Shown: positions 7,868-31,750 of the stretch, one piece after another
Layout of the letters: each line of letters opens with the position of its first letter
Position numbering within the stretch: the stretch's first letter is position 1
Assembly (NCBI GenBank): GCA_030830105.1
Contig: JAURNP010000070.1
Location: forward strand, 1 to 54,504
Source of the DNA: Rhodothermales bacterium
Lineage (GTDB): Bacteria; Bacteroidota; Rhodothermia; Rhodothermales; UBA10348
Direction of reading: 5' to 3'
Length of the DNA stretch: 54,504 bases
Position numbers and translations under genes: made by a program
The notes under the pieces: model-generated
What the model was told of the DNA's origin: nothing
The model's input: the letters and a program-made list of their open reading frames with translations, nothing else
Databases searched by the model: none

Positions 7868-7940
7868 TGGAGCTAAGCGGAGTCGAACCGCTGACCTCTT
7901 GAATGCCATTCAAGCGCTCTACCAGCTGAGCTATAGCCCC
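7868..7940 (-). tRNA. tRNA-Ala (anticodon GGC)
   Basis: The reverse complement is GGGGCTATAGCTCAGCTGGTAGAGCGCTTGAATGGCATTCAAGAGGTCAGCGGTTCGACTCCGCTTAGCTCCA. It folds by eye into a 73-nt cloverleaf with a 7-bp acceptor stem carrying the G3:U70 alanine identity pair, anticodon loop AUGGCAU and T-loop GGTTCGACTCC. The CCA tail is not encoded. Confidence 0.95.
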
Positions 7941-7985: not shown

Positions 7986-8017
7986 CAAAGATAGGGTTTT
8001 GAAATCGGATCAGGCAA
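7986..8017 (-). promoter_or_regulatory. Bacteroidota-type promoter for tRNA-Ala (TTG-N21-TATCTTTG)
   Basis: On the minus strand, TTG (8017-8015) is followed by a 21-nt spacer and then TATCTTTG (7993-7986), matching the TAnnTTTG -7 element. It lies 45 nt upstream of the mature tRNA 5' end. Confidence 0.4.
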
Positions 8018-28482: not shown

Positions 28483-28944
28483 ATGCGACGCGAGTCGTTG
28501 TTGACCGAAGAGGATCTGAAAGACGTCAGTGCGGAAGTGGTTGCAACCATCTGGTCGCGAAAGAATGACCTGGACCATCCACTCAGATATGCGCGGAAAG
28601 TGGTACGTCACCGACTGATTCAATTCTTGCGCGAAAAACGACGTCAATTGGAGGTACTGTCGGAATGGCATAATTCCAGAACCGAATCGATCTTTCTCGG
28701 GTCTGAGCCTTCACTGGGTCAGTCTTTGGGAACCGCTGTGCGACCCCGCCAGGAATTCGTACGCGCCTGCCTCAAGCGTCAAGATGGCCAGACGCGACTG
28801 ATTCTTCACCTTCGATACGAAGCTGGGTTCTCCTGGCGATTGATTGCAGAAGCAGTGGGAGGATCTGCCGCATCGGTGCGCATGAAGGAGCAGCGATTCT
28901 GTCGGCGCATCCTGGCAGCGTGGGAAACAGAGCGCATGGTCTAG
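28483..28944 (+). CDS. Short sigma-70/ECF-like factor (regions 2 and 4 only)
   Basis: Region-2-like YARKVVRHRLIQFLREKRR and a region-4 HTH, RLILHLRYEAGFSWRLIAEAVGGSAASVRMKEQRFCRRI. At 153 aa it is unusually short, and the start is uncertain. Confidence 0.45.
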   Translation: MRRESLLTEEDLKDVSAEVVATIWSRKNDLDHPLRYARKVVRHRLIQFLREKRRQLEVLSEWHNSRTESIFLGSEPSLGQSLGTAVRPRQEFVRACLKRQDGQTRLILHLRYEAGFSWRLIAEAVGGSAASVRMKEQRFCRRILAAWETERMV

Positions 28945-29010: not shown

Positions 29011-29658
29011 TTGAACGCCCCCTTTACTAGACCGGGATCCACTGTGTTCTACGATACCCCGTTCACGCTTTTCCTGTTGCTGATCAACATCCTGGTCAGC
29101 GGTTATGCCCTGTATCAGGACAAGTCGCTGATAGGAAAGCTCTCCTTCAAGCCCCGAGAGATTCTACAGAACAAGGAGTGGTACCGGATGATTACGGGCG
29201 GCTTCGTTCATGGGGGACTGGGCCACCTGGCGTTCAACATGATTACGCTGTACTACTTCGGGCCCTATCTCGAAGCACAAATTGGCTCACTGGCCTTCCT
29301 GGTAGTGTATTTCGGAGCCGAGTTGGCGGCTCATGGCCTTACACTGCTGTTGCACAAGGATACGCCGGGGTATAGCGCTGTAGGAGCTTCCGGCGCAATT
29401 TCCGGACTGGTGTTCTCCTTCTGCCTTTTCCAGCCCTTCGCAAGTATCTACCTCTTCTTTGCCATTGGAATCCCGGCGTGGCTTTTTGCCTTCAGTTTTG
29501 TCGGGTTTTCAGTTTGGGCCATGCGAAAGCGCGAGTCTGCTGCTATGGGAGGCATTGCCCATGAAGCGCACCTCGGAGGCGCTATTGGCGGTTTGGTTTT
29601 CACATTGCTCATGCATCCCAGTGCCCTGAAGTCCTTCCTCAGTCAGATTGGTATGTGA
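29011..29658 (+). CDS. Rhomboid-family intramembrane serine protease
   Basis: Contains WYRMITGGFVHGGLGHLAFNM, the catalytic GASGAISGLV and HLGGAIGG, with 6 TM segments. TTG start as tracked. Confidence 0.85.
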   Translation: MNAPFTRPGSTVFYDTPFTLFLLLINILVSGYALYQDKSLIGKLSFKPREILQNKEWYRMITGGFVHGGLGHLAFNMITLYYFGPYLEAQIGSLAFLVVYFGAELAAHGLTLLLHKDTPGYSAVGASGAISGLVFSFCLFQPFASIYLFFAIGIPAWLFAFSFVGFSVWAMRKRESAAMGGIAHEAHLGGAIGGLVFTLLMHPSALKSFLSQIGM

Positions 29659-29763
29659 GTCGGTACAGGATATATCCGTTATTGCATAAGGATATAGATA
29701 GTGGATATACGGAGCCATTCTTAATACGTAATGGGAGCGAGGCAAGAAAACCGTTATTGGCCG

Positions 29764-29795
29764 GTTGCAGTAACCCGTCGCTATTCCCTATCTTT
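29764..29795 (+). promoter_or_regulatory. Candidate Bacteroidota-type promoter (TTG-N21-TATCTTTG) inside the ORF-free gap
   Basis: TTG (29764-29766), a 21-nt spacer, then TATCTTTG (29788-29795). The octamer and the spacing are identical to the element upstream of tRNA-Ala in this window. Confidence 0.3.
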
Positions 29796-29868
29796 GTACT
29801 ACTCATGCCGCCTGGGATTGCGTCCCTGTTAAGGGACACTCAGTCGCGCAGTGACTATGGGCACCAAA

Positions 29869-29896
29869 AAGCTCGGTTCGTAAGGGCCGGGCTTTT
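29869..29896 (+). terminator. Intrinsic terminator-like hairpin (A-tract/T-tract flanked, possibly bidirectional)
   Basis: 10-bp stem AGCTCGGTTC/GGGCCGGGCT (3 G-U pairs) capped by a GUAA tetraloop, followed by a run of five Ts (29892-29896, the first closing the stem) and preceded by AAAAA. Confidence 0.5.
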
Positions 29897-30178
29897 TGCA
29901 CATCTGGTCGAGCCCACCATCAGGCCACTTCGCTGGTCGCGCTGGGAGTTGGACCCTCCGATAAGATCGCTATCGCACAGAAGCATCGCGGCACAATAGC
30001 GCAGAGGATTACGGGCAACCAGGCAAAGAGGCAACCAGGCAAGCGGCATACCGGCTTGCTGTCAACGCTGCCGTCAGGAGAGAGGCAGGCGACTCAACAC
30101 TCCCGCATCCGGATGGTTATGCACAGATGTGGCAAAGTCACTGTGAATTTCTTGTGGAAGAAATGGGGTGGGGTGATT

Positions 30179-30207
30179 ATTGACTCCGCTGAGAGGTGGG
30201 CCTATAA
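30179..30207 (+). promoter_or_regulatory. Near-consensus sigma-70-type promoter TTGACT-N17-TATAAT
   Basis: TTGACT at 30179-30184, a 17-nt spacer, then TATAAT at 30202-30207. It is preceded by a 7-bp AT-rich hairpin (30146-30163). Whether this organism's housekeeping sigma uses -35/-10 elements is unknown. Confidence 0.35.
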
Positions 30208-30213
30208 TGGCCC

Positions 30214-30961
30214 CAGTGCCTAACGGCACAGTTCCTTGATGCGACTGAGTCTCTAGGCTGCATGAGGCAAGCCACGCCACCCGAAAGGGAGGCACTGTAA
30301 GGCCCCTGCACCGATGATGATCACCGAGGTTTCGAGCAAACCAAGGTGGGAGTTGGAGTAGTGCCGGATCCATGCCAGGGGGATGTTCGAAGATGAGGGT
30401 CGCAAGACCAGCGTCGGACGGCAGATAATCCCGGGTGATGAACCGACATCCCGAGCAAAGACCGGACGGTTTCGACCGCGAGGAAAGTGTCAGGGAGGGA
30501 TATCGAAGAGAAGTGTGAATTGGAAGCGTCCCGGCGCTCCGGTCCAAACCCCTCTTCGGGACGACAAGGCGGAAAATCAACGCAATCGGCTTCGGCCGGC
30601 GGCAGATTGGAAGTCGAGACGTCTAAACAATGGACCTGCTCTCTCGAATGTCTTTTCGGAGGCGGACTGGAGGGAAGCCATTGCCCGGCTGATGAAAACC
30701 GACCCGCAAGGGAACGGAGCATTGGACGGAGACCTTGCAAGGCTCTCGTCTTTATCGTGTGCCCATACGATGGAGACAACACGGTTCACCGTTCGCGGAG
30801 ACCGTGTTACCCTGATCTCGGTCAAACGAGTGATGGGATCCACTGAGACTCGAACCTCCCGTTGCTGGTGCGGAGGAAACGCTTCGGCGTAGAAGCCACA
30901 CCAGGGGAGGTTCTCGTGTCGGGAGCAGAAAAGAAGCTGTCCTTAAGGGACGGCTTTTTTT
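30214..30961 (+). ncRNA. Candidate large (~750 nt) highly structured non-coding RNA, family not recognised
   Basis: There is no credible ORF. The region holds many tetraloop-capped hairpins read by eye: 30215-30228, 30275-30292 (GAAA), 30397-30408 (GCAA), 30466-30477 (UUCG), 30586-30597 (UUCG), 30698-30716 (GCAA), 30728-30744, 30747-30776 (11 bp) and 30777-30807 with an inner UUCG. Nested helices pair 30851-30859 with 30904-30912 and 30864-30869 with 30898-30903, around a UUCG hairpin at 30878-30889. The region ends in a strong terminator. The boundaries are inferred. Confidence 0.4.
30934..30961 (+). terminator. Strong intrinsic terminator (stem plus T8), followed by a second T7 tract
   Basis: AGCTGTCC / GGACGGCT forms an 8-bp stem (one G-U) with loop TTAAG, then TTTTTTTT (30954-30961). 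GTCCCTGC plus TTTTTTT follows at 30962-30976. On the opposite strand the same hairpin is followed by TTCTTTTCT, so it may also terminate the convergent HAD gene. Confidence 0.7.
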
Positions 30962-30988
30962 TGTCCCTGCTTTTTTTGGAGACAGTCT

Positions 30989-31750
30989 CTATCCCGCCAG
31001 CTGGTTCACCAGATCTGGTATGCTATCCCAGTCCGTGAACGAGTAGACATCCGGATGATCATGGGACGACTCGGAGAACCAGGCAACCTTCCACCCGGCG
31101 CCAATACTGCCGTTTACGTCCGAGGTGATCGAGTCGCCGACGTAGAGAATTTCGTAAGCCTCCATGCCAGCGCGCCGCGCAGACTCGGCAAACAATCGAG
31201 GATCAGGTTTTAGAACTCCCACTTCTTCGCTGATCACGATAACGCTGGAAACGTCGTCCAGCATGGGAAATCGTTGGAGCTTGGCCTGCTGGATTTCAAC
31301 GAATCCGTTCGTAAGAATGCCTACAGGAAGGAGCTCTGCGACCGCTACAAACGCTTCAAAAGCGCCTTCGATGGCCTGCCAGTGATTGGAGTACGCGTCC
31401 AGATAGCGGTGCGCCAACTCCTCATCGACGCCCGTATCCAACCCGAGACCTTCGAGCAGCTGAGAAAAACGGCCGACCTTGGCTTGACGCTTGGTGAACT
31501 CGCCGGCCGAATACTTACGCCACACGACTGGATTGATCTCCCGGTACAGGGCGTGAACCGCATCAAAGGAATGATCGCCAAATGGGCGATCTGAGCTCGC
31601 ATGCATGTCCCGCAGCGCCCCGTGCTCAGCGTGCGTATGGTCCAGCAGTGTGTCATCCAGGTCGAAGTAAACGAAGCGGATGGGTCCTGGACGGGGCGCG
31701 TTGCTATGGCGAGGCGCTCCTTTTTTTCGAAGGTCAGAGTCGTGGCTCAT
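30989..31750 (-). CDS. HAD-superfamily hydrolase (subfamily IA-like)
   Basis: Contains motif I FVYFDLDDTLLD, motif II GILTNG and motif IV YVGDSITSDVNG. Its ATG overlaps the stop of the upstream GNAT-fold gene (TGATG). Confidence 0.85.
   Translation of the reverse strand: MSHDSDLRKKGAPRHSNAPRPGPIRFVYFDLDDTLLDHTHAEHGALRDMHASSDRPFGDHSFDAVHALYREINPVVWRKYSAGEFTKRQAKVGRFSQLLEGLGLDTGVDEELAHRYLDAYSNHWQAIEGAFEAFVAVAELLPVGILTNGFVEIQQAKLQRFPMLDDVSSVIVISEEVGVLKPDPRLFAESARRAGMEAYEILYVGDSITSDVNGSIGAGWKVAWFSESSHDHPDVYSFTDWDSIPDLVNQLAG

Follow-up and report, generated by a model that had tools for sequence, protein, structure and literature searches.

The 1.33-kb gap between a rhomboid-family gene (29011-29658, plus strand) and a HAD/YjjG-like hydrolase gene (30989-31750, minus strand) holds two conserved non-coding RNA genes, a small RNA of about 100 nt (sRNA A) and a structured RNA of about 750 nt (RNA B). 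Both genes lie in the 54,504-nt stretch of Rhodothermales DNA that we analyzed as a whole (the window), and the genes flanking them converge on the gap. The explanation that we favor, and hold to be probable, is a conserved two-gene RNA module in which A would dock on B as a heterodimeric complex or switch. A preliminary description of the window had read the gap as a single structured RNA, previously undescribed, that is encoded on the plus strand over about 750 nt and has a promoter and a terminator of its own. This core reading is supported by our analysis, which adds three features overlooked there: a second RNA gene in the first 250 nt of the gap (about 29765-29902), the pairing of its product with the large RNA at three sites, and a DnaA-box-like array. 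The two genes and the DNA between them are arranged as follows:

29800-29902, plus strand: sRNA A, about 100 nt, with the 5′ end placed from its promoter and the 3′ end at the terminator U tract
29907-30111, no strand: spacer between A and B, lineage-specific and unconserved
30215-30962, plus strand: large structured RNA B, a primary transcript of about 750 nt supported by a 174-pair consensus and transcript-like contigs

The spacer measures 205 nt in this window, compared with 9-121 nt in other species; a 13-nt sequence (GGCAACCAGGCAA) is directly repeated within it, at 30013-30025 and 30029-30041. Sequence conservation of the B unit starts around 30112, in a stretch upstream of the B promoter that corresponds to the regulatory box array. 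Besides the rhomboid gene and the HAD gene, which is nucleotidase-like, the neighbors of the locus are genes for an ECF-like sigma factor, a USP and a DsbD-like protein.

The two-gene module is specific to one Rhodothermales clade. The order rhomboid, A and B, with the HAD gene facing them, recurs at some 30 loci in genomes and in the majority of 61 contigs from metagenomes. In every case with upstream sequence to examine, A (conserved at 80-93% identity) immediately precedes B. The rhomboid/HAD site also exists in Salinibacter-type genomes, where it lacks the module, and in related genomes with an empty site just 17-255 nt separate the two protein genes. Larger rhomboid-HAD gaps in five loci without a match (L029, L033, L048, L054 and L059) contain long ORFs and lack the family motifs. 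One further locus (L042) has a 984-nt rhomboid-HAD gap without a long ORF. A phage or mobile origin of the module was rejected, as a scan of viral contigs for the conserved 5′ motif returned no matches and the chromosomal synteny is strict.

Full-length copies of RNA B are conserved in at least 19 non-redundant lineages of Rhodothermales, and B reaches 1.1-1.2 kb in some lineages. Its consensus structure is paired at 90.3%, compared with 41-46% in slid controls, and 81 of the 174 pairs carry changes on both sides (34-49 in the slid controls); in 500 shuffles, values as high as those observed never arose. RNAalifold predicted 129 pairs and found compensatory changes in 53. The pairing pattern obeys RNA rules, G-U pairs included, and describes a multi-domain molecule with about 30 conserved helices over its whole length. 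The folding energy (z-scores of -5.6 for the plus strand and -4.95 for the minus strand, from 20 shuffles each) is weak evidence when taken alone. Every hairpin listed in the preliminary description is part of the consensus, which did not recover the outer AACACGG/CCGUGUU stem also proposed there. Compensatory substitutions are abundant in the proposed helices among many Rhodothermales homologs; they affect several pairs in each, except in a conserved 9-bp helix with one. The coordinates given for these helices were mostly 1 nt too low; the 9-bp helix, for example, pairs 30852-30860 with 30905-30913. Four elements of the fold are central to what follows:

30231-30243, plus strand: 5′ strands of the closing helices P1 and P1′, which pair with 30915-30926
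30247-30253, plus strand: 5′ strand of P2, which pairs with 30845-30851
30748-30777, plus strand: the most conserved hairpin of B, with a 13-bp stem and the apical sequence UGCCCAU (30760-30766, segment Z′)
30845-30926, plus strand: 3′ domain, containing the P2 3′ strand, three nested helices and the 3′ strands of P1′ and P1

The long-range helices P1, P1′ and P2 are predicted to clamp the 5′ and 3′ ends of B. P1/P1′ is a continuous helix of 14-15 bp in distant lineages, with 96.5% of cells paired and one-sided changes only. P2 shows a G-C to A-U change in three sequences and a matched 1-nt insertion on both strands in two others (L047 and L094). Between the 3′ strands of P2 and P1′ in the 3′ domain are the nested helices 31-33 (30852-30860/30905-30913, 30865-30873/30896-30904 and 30879-30882/30887-30890), which are paired at 89-100% and have changes on both sides. 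Farther upstream, the Z′ loop is almost invariant in lineages whose stem sequences differ.

The gene has its own transcription signals, as had been claimed. The promoter, TTGACT-N17-TATAAT, is the sole match to this pattern in the 54.5-kb window, where 0.01 would be expected by chance. Its hexamers (TTGAC-N18-TATAAT) are conserved across about 29 species with a spacer of variable sequence. The alternative that TATAAT is the loop of an RNA hairpin (GGGCC-TATAAT-GGCCC) was rejected because the spacer of other species is neither conserved nor complementary, and the promoter reading therefore stands. The terminator was also found at the expected end of the gene.

30180-30208, plus strand: B promoter, with conserved hexamers
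30928-30962, plus strand: B intrinsic terminator, in which an A-rich strand pairs with the U tract (helix 34)

About 12 contigs consist of the RNA alone. They share a start nucleotide, approximately 9 nt after the predicted start of B, and end at the P1 3′ strand; the B terminator is missing from eight of them. In one contig (L115), B is fused to eukaryotic LSU rRNA, a chimera that makes the RNA-only contigs look like assembled transcripts. Their boundaries and the chimera thus point to a metatranscriptomic origin. The terminator is probably trimmed from the mature RNA, which probably spans about 30224-30926. Marine and salt-marsh samples contain enough of this RNA family for it to assemble from apparent metatranscriptomes.

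The small RNA gene upstream has a different type of promoter and three segments complementary to B, co-linear in the two RNAs:

29765-29796, plus strand: sRNA A promoter, TTG-N21-TATCTTTG, of the Bacteroidota -33/-7 type
29802-29815, plus strand: A segment X, CUCAUGCCGCCUGG, partner of X′
29822-29837, plus strand: A internal hairpin, of variable sequence
29838-29848, plus strand: A segment Y, ACUCAGUCGCG, partner of Y′
29857-29863, plus strand: A segment Z, AUGGGCA, partner of the apical loop Z′
29865-29902, plus strand: A intrinsic terminator, a 15-bp stem followed by a U tract
30240-30250, plus strand: B segment Y′, target of Y, overlapping P1′ and P2
30253-30266, plus strand: B segment X′, target of X, nearly invariant

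TTG and TAnnTTTG are conserved at the promoter position in 15 species. The pattern occurs twice in the window, and its other copy is the promoter of the tRNA gene. The A promoter is of the housekeeping (tRNA-type) Bacteroidota kind. The structure of A is supported by compensatory changes: 98.7% of cells are paired overall and 10 pairs change on both sides, including five of the six in the internal hairpin (98.9% paired) and five in the terminator (98.7%). An alternative fold of free A places X against Y. We rejected this internal fold because a cross-tabulation of X7 and Y11 did not show the two positions covarying consistently, in contrast to the intermolecular partners.

The complementarity between A and B extends over 14 bp (X-X′), 11 bp (Y-Y′) and 7 bp (Z-Z′), about 32 bp in total. 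X-X′ has both-sided compensatory changes at X1, X7, X10 and X12. Segment X′ is probably single-stranded; a local hairpin over it (helix 4) lacks both-sided changes and is probably not real. For Y-Y′, compensatory changes occur at Y1 and Y2 (L090, L111 and L113) and the other changes in Y are mostly wobble-compatible, with the exceptions of U7>C in L104 and G>A at the terminal Y11. Segment Z pairs with the loop of the most conserved hairpin of B, about 530 nt downstream, and two independent both-sided changes at Z4 and Z5 preserve the match (AUGGACA/UGUCCAU in L030, L100 and L108; AUGAGCA/GCUCAU in L083). When partners were permuted, the observed pairing was reached in 115 (X), 35 (Y) and 186 (Z) of 20,000 trials, or about p = 0.002-0.009 in a test that ignores phylogeny. 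As the 5′ 45 nt of B and the pairing segments of A are nearly invariant, the covariation between the two RNAs rests on a handful of events. Furthermore, the clade of L017, L020 and L021 has an A-A mismatch at Y2 although P2 is compensated, which indicates that the Y-Y′ pairing is not maintained everywhere. Co-folding A with the 5′ region of B gave -86.8 kcal/mol compared with -63.5 kcal/mol for the separate molecules, a predicted dimer favored by 23 kcal/mol. Together, these patterns suggest that A and B co-evolve at three trans-pairing segments and would associate.

In the mechanism that we propose, docking of A on B would produce a heterodimeric RNA complex, and A would land on the Z′ loop and on X′, an accessible strand. 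The Y segment would in turn compete with the 3′ end of B for the B 5′ strand. Y shares the sequence GUCGCG with the B 3′ strand, and this competition would make A a trans-acting staple or switch. A could either keep hold of the B 5′ strand until synthesis of the 3′ strand is complete, or open the closed form. Two-piece tmRNA, crRNA:tracrRNA and U4/U6 offer precedents for separate RNA chains joined by conserved, covarying intermolecular helices. Unlike these, A and B have no tRNA-like domain, tag ORF, CRISPR array or cas genes and no sequence relation to them, and the assembly of A with B is predicted.

An unlikely, though not negligible, alternative is that B mainly serves as a decoy that titrates A, whose real targets would be mRNAs elsewhere recognized through X, Y or Z seeds. 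Three A-complementary sites on B fit such a sponge, and separate promoters of different types would allow control of the A:B ratio. Pairs such as GcvB/SroC and RyeA/SdsR are likewise two non-coding RNAs that pair in trans. However, short sites suffice for titration, yet B has 750-1200 nt and about 30 conserved helices. The genes for A and B are also co-inherited and adjacent in all loci with available upstream sequence, which together with some 32 bp of pairing over three sites and the conserved large fold of B sets them apart from known sponge pairs. A search of the 54-kb window for perfect complements of at least 10 nt to the pairing segments of A found a single one, inside B.

A second alternative, to which we assign a low probability, is a type I toxin-antitoxin-like pair or an antisense-controlled mRNA, with B encoding a peptide from an AUG at 30383, folding back as hok does, and A acting as the antitoxin. 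This AUG is conserved and preceded by GGAGG, and it opens ORFs of 27-38 amino acids in 13 of 19 species. The layout also resembles hok/sok, where a long RNA closed from 5′ to 3′ end is paired near its 5′ end by a small adjacent RNA and 3′ trimming is likely. Against this, the ORF has just 4-6 amino acids in L013, L104 and L112 and 17 in L016, the peptide is not hydrophobic, and the would-be coding stretch coincides with helices 12-14, which carry compensatory changes. The pairing sites of A lie about 120 nt upstream of the AUG and, in the distant loop, about 380 nt downstream of it, away from a ribosome-binding site. B greatly exceeds toxin mRNAs in size and structure: it is 2-3 times longer than the target RNA of hok/sok-type pairs and is structured throughout. 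It has no conserved toxin ORF, and its three-part pairing with A reaches a distant hairpin loop.

The module matches no described RNA family. The preliminary description had compared B to GOLLD, ROOL and OLE, large ornate bacterial RNAs for which cryo-EM structures are available (PMC12286853); the likeness holds for style and does not extend to detectable homology. As in B, these RNAs exceed 600 nt, combine many short GNRA- or UUCG-capped helices with purine-rich joining regions, and show strong covariation within a narrow phylogenetic range. The known RNAs function as homo-oligomers, form them, or bind Oap proteins, whereas B has a separately transcribed sRNA partner with three sites. OLE is associated with oapA, oapB and oapC in Firmicutes extremophiles, whereas B has other neighbors and a Rhodothermales host; GOLLD and ROOL often reside in prophages and phages or beside tRNA genes, in contrast to the strictly chromosomal, syntenic B locus. 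This size and tetraloop-rich style are what could suggest a highly divergent member of a known family (RNase P, tmRNA, 6S, group I/II intron, OLE, GOLLD, ROOL or HEARO), a reading that we find highly improbable. Of the 4227 models of Rfam 15, which include RNase P, tmRNA, SRP, 6S, OLE, GOLLD, ROOL, HEARO, raiA and group I/II introns, only tRNA had a gathering-score match in the whole window (at 7868-7940). Relaxing the threshold to E<=10 returned eight short chance matches of at most 20 bits in the gap region. Neither sRNA A nor 20 distant homologs of B matched a family, aside from the chimeric piece of eukaryotic rRNA. ARAGORN found neither a tRNA nor a tmRNA in 29500-31100, no genes for IscB, reverse transcriptase or Oap lie near the locus, and literature searches found no description of this RNA.

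The stretch adjoining the B promoter has an array of motifs that resemble DnaA boxes:

30117-30161, no strand: DnaA-box-like array, TTATGCACA, TGTGGCAAA, TGTGAATTT and TGTGGAAGA

Of 58 non-redundant loci, 45% contain a perfect TTWTNCACA, compared with 1% of background windows (about 45-fold), and 55% contain two or more near-perfect boxes, compared with 1.7% (near-perfect boxes are enriched about 16-fold). The motifs are phased with a spacing of 11-12 bp. From the motifs alone, the array is a putative set of DnaA sites. DnaA-regulated promoters such as those of dnaA and nrdAB similarly have several TTWTNCACA-like boxes beside the -35 element; here the product would instead be a large non-coding RNA, a combination for which we know of no described case. 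The conserved, phased array could also mean that the locus functions mainly as DNA, as a chromosomal origin or a datA/DARS-like DnaA-titrating site, with the transcripts as secondary features. We give this very little credence, as conservation and covariation continue for at least 750 nt past the boxes and follow RNA pairing rules, and RNA-only contigs exist. An oriC at the locus was specifically rejected: the cumulative GC skew rises steadily across the window, the skew is positive on both sides of the locus without a sign switch or a minimum there, and the flanking genes converge.

B encodes no conserved protein. The gap had been described as lacking a believable ORF and, consistent with this, four long overlapping ORFs do exist but have no Pfam match; a Pfam search of five gap ORFs also found no family. 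Gene callers annotate an ORF of 169 amino acids as a hypothetical protein. Among 5.8 billion database proteins it matched three, each a false gene call at this RNA locus in a relative. Read from the conserved AUG, its frame spans 4-38 amino acids in 16 of 18 other species (the exceptions are L010, with 50 amino acids from a different AUG, and L011, with 105) and is unconserved even at 82% nucleotide identity. Indels in B are not multiples of 3 and are located in hairpin loops. With no protein match or frame conservation and with strong compensatory pairing, a decayed protein gene or IS remnant with incidental structure is effectively refuted.

The two-gene module with A docking on B may extend to a more elaborate scheme, which we advance tentatively and regard as possible rather than probable: an obligate two-chain RNA machine in which A staples the B 5′ end to a distant hairpin and gates closure, and DnaA licenses B in a replication-coupled manner. 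More speculatively, DnaA occupancy would set the transcription of B and tie its amount to the replication or growth state of the cell, with A produced constitutively.

Large, intricately folded bacterial RNAs are rare, and RNase P, tmRNA, OLE, GOLLD, ROOL and HEARO each opened new biology or structural principles. To our knowledge, a separate sRNA with three segments that co-evolve with a large RNA, one of them directed against its closing helix, has not been described. The identification of the RNA genes corrects spurious "hypothetical protein" calls in public databases. Furthermore, it makes testable the existence of natural bacterial RNA-RNA heterodimers of such size and the use of a dedicated sRNA as a folding staple or switch. 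If the box array is functional, the module would be the first link known to us between the replication initiator and a large non-coding RNA.

The gap between a rhomboid-family gene (29011–29658, + strand) and the convergent gene for a HAD/YjjG-like hydrolase (30989–31750, − strand) spans positions 29659–30988. Using the adjacent HAD protein as query against 185,579 species genomes, we recovered 80 Rhodothermales loci, about 30 of which share two blocks conserved in blastn and nhmmer comparisons:

about 29786–29906, + strand: block A, with a small RNA (sRNA A) of about 100 nt
about 30110–30980, + strand: block B, with a large structured RNA (B) of about 750 nt

The invariant 5′ motif of B, used as an exact pattern, matched 61 metagenome contigs and none of the viral contigs scanned. 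Wherever flanks are present, rhomboid gene, A and B follow one another on one strand, usually with the HAD gene converging on them. The rhomboid and HAD genes of Salinibacter, Salinivenus, Longimonas and many other Rhodothermales lie 17–255 nt apart, without A or B (17–105 nt at the empty sites L032, L034, L037, L039, L046, L051, L055–L057, L060–L063, L069, L072–L074, L077, L079 and L081). Because the site is empty in so many relatives, the A–B module is a discrete unit of about 1–1.6 kb belonging to one clade only. One further locus has a 984-nt rhomboid–HAD gap (L042:10697–11680) without a long ORF or any motif of the A–B family; an unrelated element, or one that has diverged strongly, may occupy it.

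We aligned 19 non-redundant full-length B sequences (745–798 nt); of the 129 pairs that RNAalifold predicted in them, 53 show compensatory changes. The consensus of 174 pairs was 90.3% paired, versus 41–46% with partners slid by 1–3 columns, and showed both-sided changes in 81 pairs (34–49 when slid) and 308 cells (71–92 when slid). On four of the five measures, none of 500 shuffles reached the observed value. All hairpins listed in the preliminary description of an ornate RNA were recovered with both-sided changes, with most of its coordinates 1 nt too low; its outer AACACGG/CCGUGUU stem was not recovered. New relative to that account are the long-range helices that close B:

30231–30243 with 30915–30926, + strand: closing helices P1 and P1′ of the consensus structure
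30247–30253 with 30845–30851, + strand: closing helix P2 of the consensus structure

In P2, a G-C pair is exchanged for A-U, and L047 and L094 have matching 1-nt insertions in its two strands; in distant lineages, P1 and P1′ merge into one continuous helix of 14–15 bp. Some lineages have a longer B (1.09–1.24 kb) with an expanded central region (L097, L105, L122, L126, L132, L147, L120 and L146). Folding energy by itself settles nothing, since z is similar on the plus (−5.6) and minus (−4.95) strands.

A protein-coding reading of the gap would draw on its overlapping long ORFs, which exist as previously listed. We rejected it because none has a Pfam match, the only homologues are spurious calls and frame length is not kept across 19 species. 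The 169-aa ORF had three matches among 5.8 billion proteins, each an unannotated prediction at this locus in a relative. The frame from the conserved AUG encodes 169 aa in the window’s species, 4–38 aa in 16 others and only 28 aa in a relative with 82% nucleotide identity. The public ‘hypothetical protein’ entries (P0001–P0003; window 30383–30892) are spurious ORF calls on B.

The promoter proposed for B, TTGACT-N17-TATAAT at 30180–30208, is the sole such site in the 54.5-kb window (0.01 expected by chance), and the proposed terminator, a hairpin followed by T8, was confirmed at the region’s end (about 30936–30962). About 29 species keep TTGAC and TATAAT but not the 17–18-nt spacer between them, the signature of a promoter rather than an RNA helix. 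A further element adjoins this promoter:

30117–30161, directly upstream of the −35 of B: phased DnaA-box-like array of TTATGCACA, TGTGGCAAA, TGTGAATTT and TGTGGAAGA

Other species carry perfect TTATCCACA or TTTTCCACA boxes upstream of B, often three spaced 11–12 bp. Among 58 non-redundant loci, 45% have a perfect TTWTNCACA there (1% of background windows) and 55% at least two near-perfect boxes (1.7% of background). We rejected the locus as an origin of replication, as GC skew is positive to either side of it and cumulative skew climbs steadily over the window. Upstream of the rhomboid gene is a small ECF-type sigma-like ORF (28483–28944) that scores below family cut-offs, an arrangement seen again in several module-carrying species; a tie to the unusual promoter of B is conceivable.

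The first part of the gap, previously regarded as empty, contains a second conserved RNA gene, A (29765–29902), with its own signals:

29765–29796, + strand: promoter of A, TTG-N21-TATCTTTG
29822–29837, + strand: covarying hairpin of A
29865–29898, + strand: 15-bp terminator of A

Hairpin and terminator combined are 98.7% paired, with both-sided changes at 10 pairs. TTG-N21-TAnnTTTG occurs in the window only at A (29765–29796, +) and at a tRNA gene promoter (7986–8017, −), and B has the window’s only TTGAC-N18-TATAAT; thus, the adjacent RNA genes differ in promoter class. The distance from A to the B unit is 9–121 nt in other species and 205 nt in the window because of a lineage-specific insertion. 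This insertion of about 200 nt (29907–30111) is absent or much shorter elsewhere and contains a 13-nt direct repeat, GGCAACCAGGCAA, at 30013–30025 and 30029–30041.

Three segments of A (X, Y and Z) are complementary to partners in B:

29802–29815 (A) with 30253–30266 (B): X–X′
29838–29848 (A) with 30240–30250 (B): Y–Y′
29857–29863 (A, AUGGGCA) with 30760–30766 (B, UGCCCAU): Z–Z′

Both-sided changes affect X1 (C-G to U-A in L030 and L100), X7 (C-G to U-A in L027, L113 and L125), X10 (C-G to U-A in L035) and X12 (U-A to C-G in L036), and some lineages have A-U or G-U in place of the lone C-U mismatch of X–X′. Y1 and Y2 change on both sides in L090, L111 and L113, most other Y–Y′ substitutions being wobble-compatible. 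Z′ sits at the apex of the most conserved hairpin of B and hardly varies, though the stem sequence differs among lineages, and Z′ co-changes with Z (AUGGACA with UGUCCAU in L030, L100 and L108; AUGAGCA with GCUCAU in L083). When A and B partners were permuted, phylogeny ignored, the observed pairing was reached for X in 115 of 20,000 permutations, for Y in 35 and for Z in 186. Furthermore, A co-folded with the first 72 nt of B at −86.8 kcal/mol, versus −63.5 kcal/mol folded apart. Exceptions temper the model: Y2 is mismatched but P2 compensated in L017, L020 and L021, and L104 has one internal Y mismatch.

About twelve contigs of the metagenome collection (1.09–1.24 kb) consist of B and nothing else. 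A common 5′ end (cGGCAC), about 9 nt past the predicted start, is shared by eight contigs; eight contigs also stop at the P1 3′ strand, lacking the terminator hairpin. In L115, B is joined to eukaryotic LSU rRNA (L115:866–1127); such rRNA chimeras are typical of metatranscriptome assemblies. Judged from sequence, these contigs would fit assembled transcripts and a mature B of roughly 30224–30926. Their ends suggest that B is processed at the 5′ end within its first hairpin loop and loses the 3′ terminator as far back as P1.

The region showed no known-family identity: Rfam 15 gave no family match for the window, the region (E ≤ 10) or 20 distant homologues. ARAGORN found nothing in the region, and the literature searched contained no description of B. 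The resemblance to GOLLD, ROOL and OLE holds in style, but we detected no homology, and B has neither the genes associated with those RNAs nor a link to phages. We classify B as a new RNA family, in a two-RNA arrangement that is likewise new.

The 5′ strands of P1′ and P2 share nucleotides with Y′, and GUCGCG in A is identical to the 3′ strand in B. Thus, A and the 3′ end of B are alternative partners for the same nucleotides, a dual constraint (pairing with A and closure of B) that explains the near-invariance of the first 45 nt of B. We infer that A most likely docks on B through X′ and the Z′ loop, after which Y would either stabilise or open the closure, making A a stably bound subunit of B or a switch. 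The module resembles hok/sok in the 5′–3′ fold-back of B and the adjacent pairing sRNA but differs in that B has no conserved toxin ORF. Given the docking that we infer, a heterodimeric RNA complex is likelier than either a simple sponge or antisense toxin control. The separate promoter types, housekeeping −33/−7 for A and TTGACA/TATAAT with DnaA-like boxes for B, would let the A:B ratio vary.
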